From: Veterinaerplatzvirus T145P1
Direction: 5' to 3' (one strand)
Sequence record: OZ035765.1
Length of the DNA stretch: 45,062 nt
The notes below the pieces were generated by a model. The model had not been told where the DNA came from, ran no database searches, and was given only the letters and a program-made list of their open reading frames with translations. Below are positions 15,837 through 44,781 of the stretch, piece by piece. Made by a program: the position numbers and the translations under genes. Position 1 is the stretch's first letter, and each line of letters begins with the position of its first letter.

Positions 15837-15885
15837 TTAGTGTAGAATGGCACAAATGATCAAAACAAACATGAGGCTTTGTGAT

Positions 15886-18800
15886 ATGGCTGAAGATATT
15901 AAGATTTATGGTGCTAAGGGTGGTAGCCAGAAGCAGCACCAACCAGTGGAACAAGAAGACAACCTGATTTCATTAAACAAGGTCAAGGTATTACTTGCGG
16001 TTGCTGACGGCGAGGTTGACCCTAACTTCTCAATGAAAGATTTATACCTTGCTGACGTTCCGGTGCAAAACCAGGATGGTAGCTACAACTATGATGGTGT
16101 TCGCGCTGAGTTCCGTGCTGGCACGCAGTATCAGGACTATATCGCCGGGCTTGACGGTGCTAACTCAGAGATTCAGGCATCCAGAGAAATCAAGAACGAT
16201 ACCCCGTACATCATTGCGGTTAACAATACTCAGCTTTCAGCAATTCGAGTTAAGCTATTTTGGCCTCGACTGGTTAAGCAAGAAAACAACGGAGACCTGA
16301 ACGGAACAACTTGCGAGTACGCAATTGACCTTTCTGTTAATGGTGGTGCTTACCAGGAATACACTCGCGGAGTTGCTAACGGCAAGACAACTACAGGTTA
16401 CGACCGAAGCATTCGCGTAAACCTTCCGGCAGAGTTTGATAGTGCGCTTGTTCGCATCCGTAAGATTACAGCTGACTCAACGAGCAGCACACTGGTTAAC
16501 GGAATGCAGATTACAACCTATCAGGAAGTAATCGACGCCAAATTCCGCTACCCGCTTACGGCTCTGGTCTATGTTGAGTTTGGTTCTGACTTGTTCCCTA
16601 ACGGCATCCCGACAATCTCAATAAAGAAGCGTTGGAAGCTAATTCAGGTACCGACAAACTACGACCCGGAGACAAGGACTTACAGCGGGACATGGAATGG
16701 CTTATTCAAGATGGCATGGTCGAATAACCCGGCATGGGTTCTCTATGACCTGGTGACAAACCGACGCTATGGGCTTGACCAGCGAGAGTTGGGTGTAGAG
16801 ATTGATAAATGGGGCTTGTATGAAGCCGCGCAATTCTGTGACCAGATGGTTCCAGATGGTAAGGGTGGTTTAGAGCCGCGTTACCTTTGCGATATGGTTG
16901 TGCAAAACAAGGTTGAGGCCTACACGCTAATTCGTGATATCTGCTCAATCTTCCGTGGTCTGACTTTCTATGACGGTGAAAAGATTGGTATCGTGGTTGA
17001 TAAGCCTCGCAACCCATCTTACATCTTCACCAATGATAACGTTGTAAACGGATTGTTCAGTCGAACCTTTGCCAGTGATAAAAGCCTTTACACCACGGCA
17101 AACGTCCAGTTTGATGATGTAGAGAACAACTATCAACAGGATGTTGAGCCGGTATTTGAATTAGAGGCAACTCGTCGTTTTGGATTTAACCCTGTAGATT
17201 TAACTGCGATTGGATGCACTCGCAGAAGTGAAGCAAACAGACGTGGCAGATGGCTCCTGAAAACAAACCTGAGAAGCGAAACTATCAGCTTCACTACTGG
17301 GTTGGAAGGTATGATTCCGATGATTGGCGAGGTAATTGCGGTCAATGACGCTGCATGGTCTAGCAACTATCAGTTAAACCTTTCCGGTCGTATTGAGTCA
17401 GTTCAGGGGTTGCAGGTTTTTACCCCTTTTAAAGTTGACGCAGCGCCTGGTGACAGAATTCTTCTGAACAAGCCAGACGGAAGTCCAGAGGCAAGAACTA
17501 TTGCCAGCGTTTCGGAGGATGGAAGAACAATCAACCTTAACACTGCTTTTAGTTTTGTAGCTCAACCTGACACTGTTTTCGCAATCGATAAGGATAATCT
17601 CGCGCTTCAACAGTATGTTGTGACCGGGATTCAAAAAGCAGATTCTGATGGCTCTGATTCATTCCAGTATACGATTACCGCAGTAGAGTATGACCCGAAC
17701 AAGTATGATGAGATTGATTATGGTGTAAACATTGTTGACCGCCCAACATCAATTGTTGAGCCTGATAGATTGTCGCCACCTGAGAACTTAACAGTATCAA
17801 GCTACAGTAAGGTTGTTCAAGGGTTGTCAGTTGAGACGATGGTTATCGGATGGGATAAAGCTCCATACGCTAAAACATACAATGTTCAGTGGAGGAAAGA
17901 AAATGGCAACTGGATTAACGTACCCAGAACGGCAAGTACAGAGGTTGATATCGAAGGTATTTACGCAGGAATCTATGACGTTAGGGTTCGCAGCGTATCA
18001 GATACTGAAAACGTGTCTTCCTGGTCTGGCATTGTAACCGTATCGCTAACTGGCAAGATTGGTCGCCCATCGGCACCTACTGTTATCACGGCATCAACAG
18101 ATGAGGTATTTGGCATCCGTGTTAAGTGGGGTTTCCCTGAGGGTTCTGGTGACACTGCTTACACTGAACTTCAGCAGGTCCCTGATAATGGTGACGGCAC
18201 TTACAATCCTGATAACGCAAGTTTGCTGACGTTACTGCCTTATCCAGCCTATGAATACTGGCACACGCCAATTCAGCCGGGTAAGGTCATCTGGTATCGC
18301 GCAAGATTGATTGACAGAATCGGCAATACCTCTGATTGGTCTTATTTCGCTAGAGGTATGAGTACTGACGACGCCAACATCATCAACGATTATATCAAGG
18401 TTGATATTGAAGGCTCGGAGGGTTTTAAATACCTAGAGCAGAATGCGATTCAAAAGAACCAGGACATTCAGAATCAAGCCGAGGCAATCATCGAGAACGC
18501 GCTGGCTAATGATGGCGATGTTCGTCGCATGACTAAGGAGAACGGCAAGCGTAAGGCTGAATATGTTCAGGCTGTGAATCTCATAGCTGATGAAACTCAG
18601 GCGCGTGTAGAGGCTCTTACGCAGCTTAAAGCGCAGATTGATGATGAGGTTGTTTCATCGATTACAGAAGTTCAGACTGCATTAGCAACAGAGACAGAAG
18701 CAAGAACTACTGCGGATACGGCTCTATCAGCAAGACTTGGTGAAAACGAGGCTGCACTAAACCAGAAGCTGGACGCTTTTTCTAACGCCACATCGACTGG

Positions 18801-19272
18801 TGTACAGTATGGGATTAGTCTTGGCCTGAAATACAACGGACAGACTTATTCATCCGGCATGAGTATGGAGCTTGTTGGCACTGGTGGGAATGTTCGCAGT
18901 CAGTTCATCTTTGACGCAAACAGATTCGCAATCAGTAACGGCATTGGTTCTGGTTCCGGTCAGTGGCAACTCCCATTCGTTGTAGAGAATGGAAACGTAA
19001 TAATCCAAAGCGCAGTAATCGGCGATGGCTCAATTACTAACGCTAAGATTGGTAATATAATTTCATCAAATGATTATGTGGCAGGCTCTCAGGGATGGGC
19101 GATACTGAAAAGTGGTGCGTCAGAGTTCAATAACACAACTGTAAGGGGCAATCTTTACGCTAACAATGGTAACTTTGCTTTTAACGGAACCAATAACACG
19201 GTTCAGATTAACAATAACGGAATCACTGTAAACTTACCGAACGGAGGAAGAGTGGTAGTTGGAGTGTGGTAA
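15886..19272 (+). CDS. tail tip / host specificity protein (lambda J-like)
   Basis: Start moved to ATG 15886 (GAGG RBS; the track extension overlaps the terminator); 1128 aa. Confidence 0.85.
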   Translation: MAEDIKIYGAKGGSQKQHQPVEQEDNLISLNKVKVLLAVADGEVDPNFSMKDLYLADVPVQNQDGSYNYDGVRAEFRAGTQYQDYIAGLDGANSEIQASREIKNDTPYIIAVNNTQLSAIRVKLFWPRLVKQENNGDLNGTTCEYAIDLSVNGGAYQEYTRGVANGKTTTGYDRSIRVNLPAEFDSALVRIRKITADSTSSTLVNGMQITTYQEVIDAKFRYPLTALVYVEFGSDLFPNGIPTISIKKRWKLIQVPTNYDPETRTYSGTWNGLFKMAWSNNPAWVLYDLVTNRRYGLDQRELGVEIDKWGLYEAAQFCDQMVPDGKGGLEPRYLCDMVVQNKVEAYTLIRDICSIFRGLTFYDGEKIGIVVDKPRNPSYIFTNDNVVNGLFSRTFASDKSLYTTANVQFDDVENNYQQDVEPVFELEATRRFGFNPVDLTAIGCTRRSEANRRGRWLLKTNLRSETISFTTGLEGMIPMIGEVIAVNDAAWSSNYQLNLSGRIESVQGLQVFTPFKVDAAPGDRILLNKPDGSPEARTIASVSEDGRTINLNTAFSFVAQPDTVFAIDKDNLALQQYVVTGIQKADSDGSDSFQYTITAVEYDPNKYDEIDYGVNIVDRPTSIVEPDRLSPPENLTVSSYSKVVQGLSVETMVIGWDKAPYAKTYNVQWRKENGNWINVPRTASTEVDIEGIYAGIYDVRVRSVSDTENVSSWSGIVTVSLTGKIGRPSAPTVITASTDEVFGIRVKWGFPEGSGDTAYTELQQVPDNGDGTYNPDNASLLTLLPYPAYEYWHTPIQPGKVIWYRARLIDRIGNTSDWSYFARGMSTDDANIINDYIKVDIEGSEGFKYLEQNAIQKNQDIQNQAEAIIENALANDGDVRRMTKENGKRKAEYVQAVNLIADETQARVEALTQLKAQIDDEVVSSITEVQTALATETEARTTADTALSARLGENEAALNQKLDAFSNATSTGVQYGISLGLKYNGQTYSSGMSMELVGTGGNVRSQFIFDANRFAISNGIGSGSGQWQLPFVVENGNVIIQSAVIGDGSITNAKIGNIISSNDYVAGSQGWAILKSGASEFNNTTVRGNLYANNGNFAFNGTNNTVQINNNGITVNLPNGGRVVVGVW

Positions 19273-19277
19273 TAAAT

Positions 19278-19305
19278 AAAGCCCCTTAATTGGGGCTTTT
19301 CTTTT
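19278..19305. terminator. bidirectional terminator (J gene and convergent minus-strand operon)
   Basis: A-run, AGCCCC-TTAAT-TGGGGCT, T-run. Confidence 0.65.
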
Positions 19306-20275
19306 AGTAGAAGTTTGGGATAAATGGAAGTGCCATTGATATGTTCGTGTCGAAAGGAAACTGAGCGCCTGTCTGAGTTGAGTAGTTACCTATTACAGAT
19401 CCAGGAACAGCCCTAACGGAGCCTCCAGACATGCAAACACCCTTGTATCGTAAGTTGTTATACCCTCCGGTAACTCTAGTTGTAGCGCCGCACCTAAGCA
19501 GCGGGAAGAAACCACCATTTATTGACTGATATCCATTGCTTATTTGTATAAATCCACCAAGAACGAATGGGCGGCGAACACTTGAAAAAACAATCTGACC
19601 AGAACTATTTGACATTGTGAGTCCAGGCCCGGCCGGTGGTGGTTCATTCCTGAATATCACCAGCTGAACATGGGTACTTGCCGCAACATCATCTGTACCT
19701 CCGTAGGTTATATCCCTACACCATATTGTTGATCCATCTGATTCAAGTGATACGTTTGGATTATCCCACTTGCCGAATGGTATTCCGCTAACTGGTAGCG
19801 ATGCTGCACCGTTAACCTGTATGCCCCCAACCCAGGCCGCAGACATTAGCCGCGAGTTGCTTGATATAGCAAGGAAATCAGTTGAGTTCTCAACAAGTAT
19901 TCCAGGACTTGATGAGGATGAAGCCGGTAGTATCTCAAAGCAATTACCAGCAAAGTCAATTATTCGACCATTAGCACCATTGAAGTTGCTGATAGTTATC
20001 CTGCCAGTTCCGTCATTTACCTTTTGAAACCCGTTCATGTAATAAACTTCGGGTATAACATCGTAAGCGTCAACGTGGACTGCCTTCGTTGGTAGGCAGA
20101 AAGCCGTAGAGCCAGGAAACATTGTCAATCCAAAATCCCACGAGATTGCCGGGGTTGAAAGTCCATTGGTATTTATTGATCCAGTCACAGCAGGTGCCCT
20201 TAATCCTGCCGTGATTTCCATCGCTGGTCTTCCGTCATTGAGGTCAATCAATATACCCTGCGGCATTATTTCCAC
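19304..20275 (-). CDS. hypothetical beta-rich protein coupled to cor-like gene
   Basis: 323 aa, Gly/Asn/Ser-rich; start overlaps the stop of the upstream lipoprotein gene. Confidence 0.5.
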
Positions 20276-20511
20276 TCCTTACTGCCGTGATCTGCAACAG
20301 AACCGCCGTAACCGCCGCCAGATTTGCTTTCAATGCCAGCGTAGCGAATATCAACCTCACCAGCCGGAACAACTACACCGCCTTTCCACTTAGCTACGCA
20401 CACGCCGTTTGCTTGTGTTGCACACCACCCATCAGGTCGAGGACCAGAAGAACAACCTACTGTCATGATTACTGCCGCCGAGATGATTGCTGATTTGATG
20501 AAGTTAGTCAT
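20266..20511 (-). CDS. cor: Cor-like outer-membrane lipoprotein (superinfection exclusion, putative)
   Basis: Start moved to ATG at 20511 (AAGGAA RBS); signal peptide plus lipobox-like TVGC; located beside the J gene as cor is in FhuA-using phages. Confidence 0.5.
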
Positions 20512-20550
20512 TTTGTATTCCTTATTAAGTTGTTTCGTTTTGATGTAGTA

Positions 20551-20594
20551 ATAATACAACCGTCAGTGCGGAATGTCTTTAGCTATTCGTGCTA
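20551..20594 (-). promoter_or_regulatory. conserved promoter/operator module (cor operon)
   Basis: Minus strand TAGCACGAATAGCTA, 23 bp, TATTAT, leader TACTACATCAAAACGA. Confidence 0.45.
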
Positions 20595-20652
20595 TTGCAT
20601 ACACGTAACCGATGTAACTCGATGTATACAATCTCATCCGCGGAAAATGATA

Positions 20653-20678
20653 TACGCACTGTTACGCAAATTTACGCA
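20653..20678. repeat. three TACGCA motifs at exact 10-bp phasing
   Basis: TACGCA at 20653, 20663 and 20673. Confidence 0.6.
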
Positions 20679-20694
20679 TTGGTTACATTAAAAT

Positions 20695-20751
20695 ATCTAT
20701 ATATATCAACCTTTTACTCTTATTATTATTATATATATATTACTGTGTATA
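20695..20751. repeat. AT-rich block, copy 1 (divergent control region)
   Basis: ATCTATATATATCAACCTTTTACT-(ATT)n-ATATATAT-TACTGTGTATA; near-identical to 39509-39574. Confidence 0.7.
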
Positions 20752-20852
20752 TCATGTAACTACTTCTATAGAGTGTTCCGGTTATAATTTTAATATCATG
20801 TGGATTTATACAGTATTGCGCTGCAGCTATACCAATGCACCCTCAGCAATAA

Positions 20853-44704: not shown

Positions 44705-44781
44705 GCTCGAGTGGCGAAAGTGGATATCGCAAGAGACTTCTAATCTCTAGATTGCTGGTTCGAATCCAGCCTCGAGCGCCA
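44705..44781 (+). tRNA. tRNA-Arg (anticodon UCU)
   Basis: Hand-folded cloverleaf: 7-bp acceptor GCTCGAG/CTCGAGC, D-arm GCGA/TCGC with GG loop, anticodon stem AGAGA/TCTCT with loop CTTCTAA, T-arm GCTGG-TTCGAAT-CCAGC, discriminator G, encoded CCA. Confidence 0.85.

Follow-up and report, generated by a model that had tools for sequence, protein, structure and literature searches.

A probable LptD-type host-recognition cassette, equivalent to rtp45-rtp44 of phage Rtp, beside the gpJ-like gene of Veterinaerplatzvirus T145P1

Two minus-strand genes face the end of the central tail fibre gene of Veterinaerplatzvirus T145P1, and we describe them here in the context of a window of 45,062 nucleotides, the whole stretch of DNA that was analysed (OZ035765.1). 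By sequence comparison the locus is 100% identical to public Veterinaerplatzvirus T145P1 records and 99.9% identical to OZ035786 over 25 kb; the genus belongs to the Drexlerviridae/Braunvirinae and also holds the LptD-dependent phage JeanPiccard (PMC8594841). The gpJ-like gene (15847..19272, plus strand, 1141 aa), with its stop codon at 19272, converges on the larger of the two genes (19304..20266, minus strand), whose stop lies at 19304; directly upstream of the latter sits a small lipoprotein gene (20266..20511, minus strand), which runs from an ATG at 20511 to a TAA at 20268-20266 and encodes 81 aa. Both open reading frames are real genes, with Pfam E-values of 8e-39 for the lipoprotein and 3e-139 for the large protein. 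At their junction, GGAAATAATGCCG, the TAA of the lipoprotein gene and the ATG of the large gene have one base (20266) in common, forming a TAATG at 20264-20268. Direct reading places the Shine-Dalgarno sequence of the large gene, AAGGAG (20275..20280, minus strand), 8 nt ahead of its ATG and within the 3'-terminal part of the lipoprotein gene, and a Shine-Dalgarno-like AAGGAA (20518..20523, minus strand) 6 nt before the ATG of the lipoprotein gene. The same gene order recurs in all eight other loci inspected, the two genes either overlapping or standing no more than 3 nt apart, and the 1-nt stop/start overlap is also annotated in OzMSK, SU57, Rtp, AKS96, JeanPiccard and vB_Ec-G8. An Rfam scan of the whole window returned no RNA family in or near the locus, the sole match being a tRNA at 44705-44778.

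The large protein had originally been given 323 aa, from a GTG at 20275. We discarded this start because the GTG falls inside the Shine-Dalgarno sequence and because the homologues, as well as a PDB chain, begin at the ATG; the protein is more probably of 320 aa, a length that agrees with the annotated homologues (963 nt in OzMSK, SU57 and AKS96) and with a solved homologue that aligns from residue 2.

The gpJ-like gene and the large gene share a bidirectional intrinsic terminator (19278..19299) with an 8-bp stem containing five GC pairs, a 6-nt loop and T-runs on both strands; the folding energies of the two strands are -13.9 and -14.4 kcal/mol (z = -2.7 and -2.0), and terminators are annotated in the same place in SU57 and AKS96 (ARNold, WebGeSTer). 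At the other end of the pair, 85 nt before the lipoprotein ATG, stands a copy of a phage-wide repeat, AATAGCACGAAT(T/A)GCTAAA (20578..20596, minus strand), recognised by the recurrence of its 12-nt core and reading here AATAGCACGAAT(A)GCTAAAG from 20596 to 20578. The core is found exactly at six sites in the window (five besides this copy) and near-exactly, with one or two mismatches, at six further sites that have the same downstream geometry. Downstream of the repeat, a consensus scan locates a sigma-70-like promoter candidate, AAGACA-17 nt-TATTAT (20551..20579, minus strand), and relative to its predicted transcription start the repeat lies at about -52 to -34; sigma-70-like sites are no more numerous in this region than in shuffled sequences, so that AAGACA-17-TATTAT is weak evidence alone. 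The repeat itself was considered as a plain -35 element and rejected, given that its TTGCTA is 22 nt from the -10-like hexamer; the module lies upstream and merely overlaps the -35 position. In phage TLS the same element has been described, with no role assigned to it, as a 21-nt direct repeat, aaATAGCACnnnTTGnTAAAA. Here the repeat mostly lies ahead of replication and recombination genes, and early expression of the cassette, as originally predicted, is at most conceivable. The anatomy outlined in the original prediction, namely a lipoprotein stop that overlaps the start of the large gene, an end of the large gene at a bidirectional terminator common with J, and a minus-strand copy of the promoter module before the small gene, is confirmed at all three points.

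It may be observed that the large protein, as a receptor-binding protein (RBP; see below), would be a virion component, yet its gene is read from the strand that the structural genes do not use, and the repeat ahead of the cassette is one that mostly precedes replication genes. The gpJ-like protein, in turn, carries the Pfam domains FNIII-A_GpJ, Phage-tail_3 and Phage_Tail_Tip and matches PHROG 31 ('central tail fiber J'); it is 96.6% identical to Rtp43 overall and 82-85% identical in the last ~140 residues, and the fibre is the presumed docking platform for a separately encoded RBP.

The 81-aa protein displays a lysine in the n-region (K6), a hydrophobic core and Cys20, and PROSITE detects in it the lipoprotein pattern PS51257, whereas the stricter lipobox [LVI][ASTVI][GAS]C does not match, position -3 being T; the signal peptide with a lipobox-like TVGC that had been proposed for it therefore stands by the former definition and falls short of the latter. 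Among six homologues position -3 is variable (T/A/I/M/L) while G-1 (G19) and C+1 (C20) are invariant, and the +2 residue is Ser. The mature lipoprotein is predicted to be acylated at Cys20 and to have 62 aa and a mass of 6.3 kDa, in agreement with the reported ~6 kDa (PMC12685063). As regards its family, residues 1-80 align with positions 1-80 of the PF24052 profile (Phage_lipoprotein) at 132 bits versus a cut-off of 27, phrog_4281 is matched at E=2.8e-36, and a phmmer search of all PDB chains (E<=10) retrieved Rtp45 (9RPS chain D) at E=5e-35 together with chance matches, nothing else lying below E=0.8; FhuA-Llp structures are reported to exist (PMC12685063). The protein is 74% identical to Rtp45, 94% to OzMSK_039 and 95% to AKS96_25. 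Cys30 and Cys38, which form a disulfide in Rtp45, are invariant among the homologues compared, and the residues that pair as a beta-sheet with LptD in 9RPS, 30-35 (PMC12685063), are identical to those of Rtp45 at five of six positions, as are 17 of the 19 residues from 39 to 57. Even a Kuravirus homologue retains R25-P26-D27-G28-W29-C30-A31, G36-V37-C38-V39, W42, P49, G51-E52, D54 and R56-Y57; the C-terminal tail, on the other hand, has a 5-residue Gly-rich insertion relative to Rtp45. Judged by its sequence, then, the 81-aa protein is a superinfection-exclusion lipoprotein of the Rtp45 family, and the earlier view of it as an exclusion-class lipoprotein beside a gpJ-like gene is borne out by PF24052, 9RPS and PS51257.

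The large protein is rich in Gly, Ser and Asn (12.2%, 10.3% and 7.2%, respectively), as had been noted before, and is matched by Pfam DUF6453 at 463.6 bits versus a cut-off of 25 (E=3e-139). A phmmer search of the PDB aligns its residues 2-320 with residues 2-321 of the RBP of phage Oekolampad (9RPT/9RPW/9RQI chain C; E=5.5e-67). With OzMSK_038 it shares 96% identity and, over 100% of its length (320/320 residues for JeanPiccard), 39% with Rtp44 and 40% with JeanPiccard bas02_0024; all three comparisons lie above the >30% identity and >99% coverage to RBPs of demonstrably LptD-dependent phages by which the LptD RBP family has been delimited (bioRxiv 10.64898/2026.04.02.716166). The 320-aa sequence contains no hydrophobic segment of transmembrane strength (maximum Kyte-Doolittle value over 19 residues, 1.1). 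In an alignment of eight RBP sequences of 40-97% identity, 13 of the 53 invariant columns fall within residues 1-23 and the distal loops are the most variable part, in line with the conservation mapping of Black et al., who proposed the conserved base/N-terminus of LptD-type RBPs as the tail attachment site (PMC13035648). Likewise, the placement of the gene downstream of gpJ, with a cognate exclusion gene, fits the 'bona fide RBP loci' described directly downstream of gpJ (PMC8594841). On the strength of these sequence relationships the 320-aa protein is a member of the LptD-specific RBP family. Two roles had been suggested for it in the original prediction: that of an additional receptor-binding protein is supported by DUF6453 and by the 9RPT match, whereas that of a partner in receptor blocking is not, the exclusion lipoprotein acting alone on LptDE in the solved structures (PMC12685063).

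The pair is thus very probably an LptD-type host-recognition cassette of small T1-like siphophages, equivalent to rtp45-rtp44 of Rtp, itself a member of the Drexlerviridae, Braunvirinae. Family membership, gene anatomy and synteny are established here directly. Rtp has the same succession of gpJ, convergent terminator and, on the opposite strand and with a 1-nt overlap, RBP and lipoprotein genes; the 74% identity of the lipoproteins includes Cys20, Cys30, Cys38 and the 30-57 core, in company with the 96.6% identity of gpJ. In contrast, the RBPs (320 aa in the window versus 311 aa for Rtp44) share only the 39% identity given above, and nucleotide identity to Rtp is down to about 45% between roughly 20340 and 19040; a different allele is thus present for the RBP, the tail of the lipoprotein and a patch close to the C-terminus of gpJ. 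In phage OzMSK (vB_ecoS_OzMSK) the genes OzMSK_038 and OzMSK_039 occupy the same positions, with 96% identity for the RBP and 94% for the lipoprotein, and that phage has proved dependent on loop 11 of LptD and on an intact strand region (PMC13035648); it differs in the insertion of a DNA methylase gene upstream of the lipoprotein gene on the same strand, in place of which the window has a 340-bp AT-rich intergenic region with the repeat module. Oekolampad (Bas18, Dhillonvirus) belongs to another phage group, yet its RBP, solved on open LptDE (9RPT, 9RPW, 9RQI), is homologous over the full length and has a near-identical N-terminal motif; the lipoprotein of that phage, SE-Oeko, is of the Dhillonvirus type, a divergent subtype exemplified by the pSf-2 lipoprotein, which is about 38% identical to the window protein. 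In the Dhillonvirus LM40P1, which is related to Oekolampad, the lipoprotein gene also lies immediately upstream of the RBP gene, but the stop and the ATG are adjacent, without overlap. The same logic is seen in the pb5/Llp pair of T5, where the tip of the central fibre bears a separately encoded monomeric RBP and a small periplasm-facing outer-membrane lipoprotein makes the same receptor unfit for binding it; there, however, the receptor is FhuA and Llp works by long-range allostery, whereas Rtp45 physically displaces LptD loops (PMC12685063).

Binding to LptD, exclusion and expression timing are inferred from the homologues, and on that footing the cassette would probably operate as follows. 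The 320-aa protein, a monomer, would dock through its conserved N-terminus on the tip of the gpJ-like central fibre, and its distal loops would enter the extracellular mouth of open LptDE, the outer-membrane LPS translocon, as the Oekolampad RBP does, this contact being the terminal and irreversible step of adsorption. The 81-aa protein would be exported, lipidated at Cys20 and, with Ser at +2, sorted to the inner leaflet of the outer membrane, where, by homology to the Rtp45-LptDE-LptM complex (9RPS), it would bind the periplasmic side of LptD near strands 5-8 and push a beta-hairpin up the LptD lumen, shifting extracellular loop 4 by as much as about 20 Angstrom. Since loop 4 would be displaced, LptD of the infected cell and of lysis debris would then be unable to bind the RBP, and the outcome would be superinfection exclusion together with protection of progeny virions. 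Cloned rtp45 reportedly confers resistance to Rtp, in keeping with the way Dunbar et al. cite the original account of that phage. On the minus strand the two genes make up a single unit, led by the lipoprotein gene, in which they are coupled in translation or closely linked through the TAATG and which ends at the bidirectional terminator, so that synthesis of the RBP would always be accompanied by that of the lipoprotein. Cryo-EM studies of 2025 show both actions in the homologues: the RBP plugs open LptDE from outside, and the lipoprotein, attached to LptDE on the periplasmic side, moves loop 4 out of place and so prevents binding of the RBP (PMC12685063). OzMSK fails on two lptD loop mutants, a result obtained at the level of the phage and not with purified RBP (PMC13035648). 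Details of binding may nonetheless differ from those of Oekolampad, because the solved RBP is only ~40-45% identical and the LptD-contacting distal loops are the most variable part of the protein.

The original prediction had instead taken the small gene for a cor-like gene whose lipoprotein blocks FhuA, with the large protein helping in receptor blocking, a reading we now regard as exceedingly improbable. Cor of T1, phi80 and N15 is indeed likewise a small lipoprotein that mediates exclusion, and its gene lies near J in phages of the same family; T1 cor stands in a place comparable to that of the lipoprotein gene adjoining the J-like gene here, in the vB_Ec-G8 record a homologue with 90% identity bears the name 'Cor superinfection exclusion protein', and T1 Cor gives weak sub-threshold matches to PF24052 (17.7 bits versus a cut-off of 27) and to phrog_4281. 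These cross-matches, however, are limited to the N-terminal 30-50 residues; a BLASTP alignment with T1 Cor covers residues 9-45 with 14 identities in 37 columns, most of them in the signal peptide and lipobox, and an 11-residue gap; globally the identity amounts to 27%, and the 81-aa protein finds no match in PHROG 1119, the Cor family, at E<=0.01, where T1 Cor itself matches at 3e-30. The confinement of the alignment and the miss in PHROG 1119 rule out membership of Cor, and the gene goes to the Rtp45 family (PHROG 4281) instead. A FhuA-type locus is likewise ruled out by comparison with T1, in which FhuA-dependent Cor is encoded by a solitary reverse-strand gene after two unrelated forward genes of the RBP locus, neither of which resembles the 320-aa protein (gp31 yields no significant alignment, E=1.1, and neither gp31 nor gp32 has a DUF6453 match). 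Furthermore, FhuA gives way as the receptor context to LptD, in that both window proteins fall in LptD-specific families whose homologues have been solved in complex with LptDE, not FhuA.

It might also be argued that the family is right and that the 320-aa lineage, of the Rogue1/OzMSK type, has exchanged LptD for another outer-membrane protein as its receptor. Identity to the most directly studied RBPs (the Rtp44/Bas01/Bas02 type and Oekolampad) is only 39-45%, the distal loops are variable, and dual-receptor cases are known in the group, e.g. Bas01, which needs NupG and LptD through a GpJ domain (bioRxiv 10.64898/2026.04.02.716166). We nevertheless hold such a switch very unlikely: two independent mutations in lptD loops each block OzMSK, whose RBP is 96% identical (PMC13035648), the BASEL study found locus type and receptor to match 'without exception' (PMC8594841), the 2026 screens found the locus to correlate systematically with receptor specificity (bioRxiv 10.64898/2026.04.02.716166), and the neighbouring lipoprotein hardly differs from Rtp45 in the reported LptD-contact segments. 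That the large protein should be a non-structural 'membrane protein' or moron, outside the virion, is improbable to the point of being negligible. This is what PHROG 1265 would imply ('membrane protein', filed under 'moron, auxiliary metabolic gene and host takeover'), as would the same label in many records, several of them RefSeq, and the position of the gene on the non-structural strand; the lack of a transmembrane-strength segment in the protein and the existence of a soluble homologue rule out the 'membrane protein' label, however, and gene position and allelic variation follow receptor use (PMC8594841; bioRxiv 10.64898/2026.04.02.716166).

With the LptD-type cassette as the preferred reading, the two genes can be compared across lineages. 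Identity to Rtp amounts to 39% for the RBP and 74% for the lipoprotein; for pSf-2 the figures are 68% and 38%. The lipoprotein tail co-varied with the RBP lineage in 6 of 6 Braunvirinae/Rogunavirinae loci, and we have rejected such co-variation as a rule, since in pSf-2 a lipoprotein of the Dhillonvirus type accompanies an RBP with 68% identity. In Kuravirus podophages both genes have homologues, which are not linked to each other, the lipoprotein again being of the Rtp45 family; SU10 gp19, to which the SU10 structure paper gives no role, is a DUF6453 homologue encoded between the tail-needle gene and the first gene for an ejection protein. Tentatively, and with somewhat more doubt than conviction, one may suppose that RBP and lipoprotein recombine independently, any lipoprotein of the family excluding every lineage of LptD-RBP, and that the pair extends beyond J-tipped siphophages, LptD being perhaps an unrecognised terminal receptor of Kuravirus; if true, cross-exclusion would occur among unrelated LptD phages.

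The mechanism and both protein families were already known (Maffei 2021, Black 2025, Dunbar 2025), and the cassette brings no new biology. Its main value lies rather in correct annotation: the public T145P1 records are unannotated, and relatives are labelled 'membrane protein', 'hypothetical protein' and, once, 'Cor'. The assignment predicts that the terminal receptor would be LptD, an essential and conserved protein, that resistant hosts would carry mutations in LptD loops, and that the lipoprotein would exclude other LptD-dependent phages, three predictions that bear on the design of phage cocktails and on phage-proof production strains.

Judged by homology, the locus at 19304-20596 on the minus strand is a cassette that pairs a putative LptD-type receptor-binding protein (RBP) with a predicted Rtp45-type exclusion lipoprotein; the feature has already been explained and the phage sequence made public. 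Three unannotated public records of Veterinaerplatzvirus T145P1 contain the locus, two with 100% identity and the third with 99.7%, and record OZ035786 shares 99.9% identity with the first 25 kb of the window. Veterinaerplatzvirus is a genus in Drexlerviridae/Braunvirinae whose other members include JeanPiccard (Bas02) and SU57.

Two real genes occupy this interval. The lipoprotein gene (81 aa), on the minus strand, has its ATG at 20511 and its TAA at 20268-20266, and the RBP gene spans 20266..19304 on the same strand (320 aa), with one base common to the lipoprotein stop and the RBP ATG (GGAAATAATGCCG) and an AAGGAG 8 nt before the latter. The ORF lister starts the large protein at a GTG at 20275, giving 323 aa; because this GTG sits within the Shine-Dalgarno sequence, all annotated homologues are 963 nt long and the alignment to the solved homologue begins at residue 2, the large protein is most probably 320 aa (20266..19304). 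In this protein Gly (12.2%), Ser (10.3%) and Asn (7.2%) are abundant, and no stretch is hydrophobic enough for a transmembrane segment. A GC-rich hairpin with T-runs on both strands (19278-19299) lies 5 nt from the end of the RBP gene and also 3' of the gpJ-like gene (1141 aa), whose stop is at 19272. The overlapping genes, the Gly/Asn/Ser-rich product and the common terminator of the original prediction thus stand, its length for the large protein being off by three residues (320, not 323). The order lipoprotein then RBP recurs in all eight other loci inspected, where the genes either overlap by 1 nt or are separated by no more than 3 nt.

The large protein matches Pfam DUF6453 (E=3e-139) and, over its full length, the 'Tail fiber protein' chain of 9RPT/9RPW/9RQI (E=5.5e-67). 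This chain is the RBP of phage Oekolampad, whose structure was determined with the protein inserted into open-state LptDE (PMC12685063). The window's large protein is 96% identical to OzMSK_038, annotated as a putative LptD receptor-binding protein, and two lptD loop mutants are refractory to OzMSK (PMC13035648). The matches to Rtp44 and the JeanPiccard homologue (39-40% identity over the whole length) exceed the threshold by which the LptD-specific RBP family is defined (>30% identity, >99% coverage; bioRxiv 10.64898/2026.04.02.716166). Moreover, the RBP gene is convergent with and directly downstream of gpJ and adjoins an exclusion gene, the same arrangement as in the 'bona fide RBP loci' of Maffei et al., in which the receptor fitted the locus type without exceptions (PMC8594841). 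The DUF6453 and Oekolampad matches and the gpJ-adjacent position all argue for the second of two earlier guesses, namely that the large protein is an additional receptor-binding protein.

The small protein matches the Pfam 'Phage lipoprotein family' PF24052 with 132 bits (cut-off 27) and a single solved chain, 9RPS_D (E=5e-35). That chain is Rtp45, the lipoprotein that phage Rtp uses for superinfection exclusion, and its structure was determined in complex with LptDE-LptM (PMC12685063); both matches favor the functional class first proposed, an exclusion lipoprotein. Identity to Rtp45 is 74% overall and much higher in the core (5/6 over residues 30-35 and 17/19 over residues 39-57), Cys20, Cys30 and Cys38 are kept, and the one real departure from Rtp45 is in the C-terminal tail, where a Gly-rich stretch of 5 residues is inserted.

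The family and receptor named at the outset, Cor and FhuA, did not hold. T1 Cor matches PHROG 1119 (E=3e-30) whereas the window lipoprotein has no match to it at E<=0.01, and the BLASTP alignment of the two proteins, which has an 11-residue gap, contains 14 identities over 37 columns, most of them within the signal peptide and lipobox; the Cor family is therefore ruled out for the small protein. T1 Cor does match PF24052 weakly (17.7 bits), and PHROG 1119 picks up Rtp45 and the pSf-2 lipoprotein, also weakly, but these cross-matches between the families are confined to the N-terminal 30-50 residues, and they arise because the signal peptides of T1 Cor and the pSf-2 lipoprotein are nearly the same (MKKLITIIAAAFILTGC and MKKLITIITAAFILTGC) while the mature parts are unrelated. 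Both of these genes, T1 cor (comparison locus L003:11624-11851) and that of pSf-2 (L010:2486-2716), come from Tunavirus phages, and the pattern suggests that breakpoints of cassette exchange may lie within the signal-peptide coding region. As for FhuA, the T1 FhuA-type locus is laid out differently, with a pair of unrelated forward genes and after them cor as the only reverse-strand gene, and the solved homologues of the window's proteins are LptDE complexes. A vB_Ec-G8 homologue 90% identical to the window lipoprotein is labelled 'Cor'; since the PHROG, alignment and T1 locus comparisons speak against Cor, this is a label of analogy, not of family. Other labels in public records deserve similar mention: the RBP family is commonly called 'membrane protein' (PHROG 1265, category moron), and the entries deposited under the names 'Pseudomonas phage PsgS01F' and 'Campylobacter phage' A134 and A118 are T1-like genomes with RBPs 40-97% identical to that of the window; at 44,679 bp, PsgS01F matches E. 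coli phage UALMA_PCEc3 in length. Some public annotation and host labels look unreliable.

How an LptD-type RBP and an Rtp45-type lipoprotein would act together can be extrapolated, at every step, from the homologues. The RBP would dock on the tip of the gpJ-like fibre via its conserved N-terminal region (residues 1-23 hold 13 of the 53 invariant columns in an eight-sequence alignment at 40-97% identity, and Black et al. likewise placed conserved residues at the base bearing the N-terminus; PMC13035648), and its variable distal loops would enter the extracellular mouth of LptD. The lipoprotein would be exported and then acylated at Cys20, with Ser at +2, bind the periplasmic side of LptD near strands 5-8 and send a hairpin up the lumen, shifting extracellular loop 4 by up to ~20 Angstrom, so that RBP binding would become incompatible. 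Because the lipoprotein gene precedes the RBP gene and is coupled to it, any cell making RBP would also have its receptor blocked. This should prevent superinfection and keep progeny from being lost to debris, which is how Dunbar et al. explain exclusion factors generally (PMC12685063).

The predicted minus-strand copy of a promoter module before the lipoprotein gene was indeed found: a repeat, AATAGCACGAAT(A)GCTAAAG, at 20596-20578, 85 nt before the lipoprotein ATG and followed by AAGACA-17 nt-TATTAT. Its presence is confirmed by this copy together with recurrence at other sites of like layout, the repeat AATAGCAC(G)AATTG(C/A)TAAA having twelve copies in the window (plus strand: 2115, 22880, 26707, 30741, 40785, 42322, 42832 and 43699; minus strand: 38040, 37253, 27768 and 20596). 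The 12-nt core is exact at six sites and near-exact at six more, the latter with the same downstream layout, in which a TATAGT-like hexamer comes ~22 nt behind TTGCTA and a similar leader precedes the ribosome-binding site and ATG. Within the repeat is an imperfect palindrome (TAGCA-N5-TGCTA). The repeat is placed at about -52 to -34 relative to the predicted start and, in most copies, is followed ~22 nt on by a TATAGT-like -10 hexamer and then by a similar leader (catcgaaacgaaaca). In phage TLS the same element was reported as a 21-nt direct repeat, aaATAGCACnnnTTGnTAAAA, for which a stoperator, an enhancer site or an UP element was proposed, none of them settled. The genes behind the sites include an Erf-like recombinase, a primase, a helicase, several small ORFs and one head-region gene, and by association with these early expression of the lipoprotein is plausible.

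A 340-bp AT-rich intergenic region (20512-20852) is all that lies directly upstream of the lipoprotein gene in the window. At this place three relatives compared have one more minus-strand gene, which codes for a DNA methylase in OzMSK (L001:4375-5067), a Dcm-like methyltransferase in JeanPiccard (L009:5963-6652) and an anti-repressor in vB_Ec-G8 (L012:1691-2344). This spot is a second insertion hot spot. The sole Rfam family match in the window is a plus-strand tRNA gene at 44705-44778 (RF00005, 66 bits); related Rogunavirus phages reportedly have one arginyl-tRNA each.

Comparison with Rtp reveals pronounced mosaicism, protein identity being 96.6% for gpJ, 74% for the lipoprotein and only 39% for the RBP. 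At the nucleotide level the two phages are 95-98% identical ahead of the lipoprotein gene and 78-90% over the first two thirds of that gene; identity falls to ~45% from roughly 20340 to 19040 and returns to ~90% further into J. The sharply divergent block thus takes in the lipoprotein tail, the whole RBP gene, the terminator and, close to the C-terminus of gpJ, a patch with a 5-residue indel. The opposite pattern is seen in pSf-2, whose RBP is 68% identical to the window's and whose lipoprotein, of the Dhillonvirus subtype, is only 38% identical. Even within one genus, JeanPiccard has a 311-aa RBP of Rtp type and T145P1 and SU57 have the 320-aa Rogue1/OzMSK type. Given these opposite patterns in Rtp and pSf-2, the RBP and exclusion genes are, as far as sequence comparison tells, exchanged independently, which is consistent with an exclusion protein that targets the receptor itself, whichever RBP is present. 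Both a DUF6453 homologue (~31% identical to the window's) and an Rtp45-family lipoprotein (~60% over residues 3-58) also occur in Drexlerviridae of Klebsiella and Enterobacter, among them Domnhall and F20, and in these two phages the genes are ~10 kb apart and so not adjacent.

Distant homologues of both cassette genes, unlinked, are also present in Kuravirus podophages (~77 kb). The DUF6453 proteins SU10 gp19 (SU10_019; L008:6059-7090) and 172-1 ORF38 (L006:2884-3918) match DUF6453 (E=2e-24) and 9RPT_C (E=6e-9), their gene being flanked on one side by the tail-needle gene (gp18) and on the other by that of the first ejection protein (gp20). The lipoprotein SU10_0104 (L007:1426-1707; PF24052 E=3e-36, 9RPS_D E=1e-15), with small early-type ORFs as neighbours, keeps the RPDGWC...GVCV...W..G..VP.GE.D.RY core. 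Neither the SU10 structure paper nor its supplement mentions gp19 or gives it a role, and no Kuravirus-LptD connection was found in the literature searched. The presence of both homologues suggests that LptD may be an unrecognised terminal receptor of Kuraviruses.
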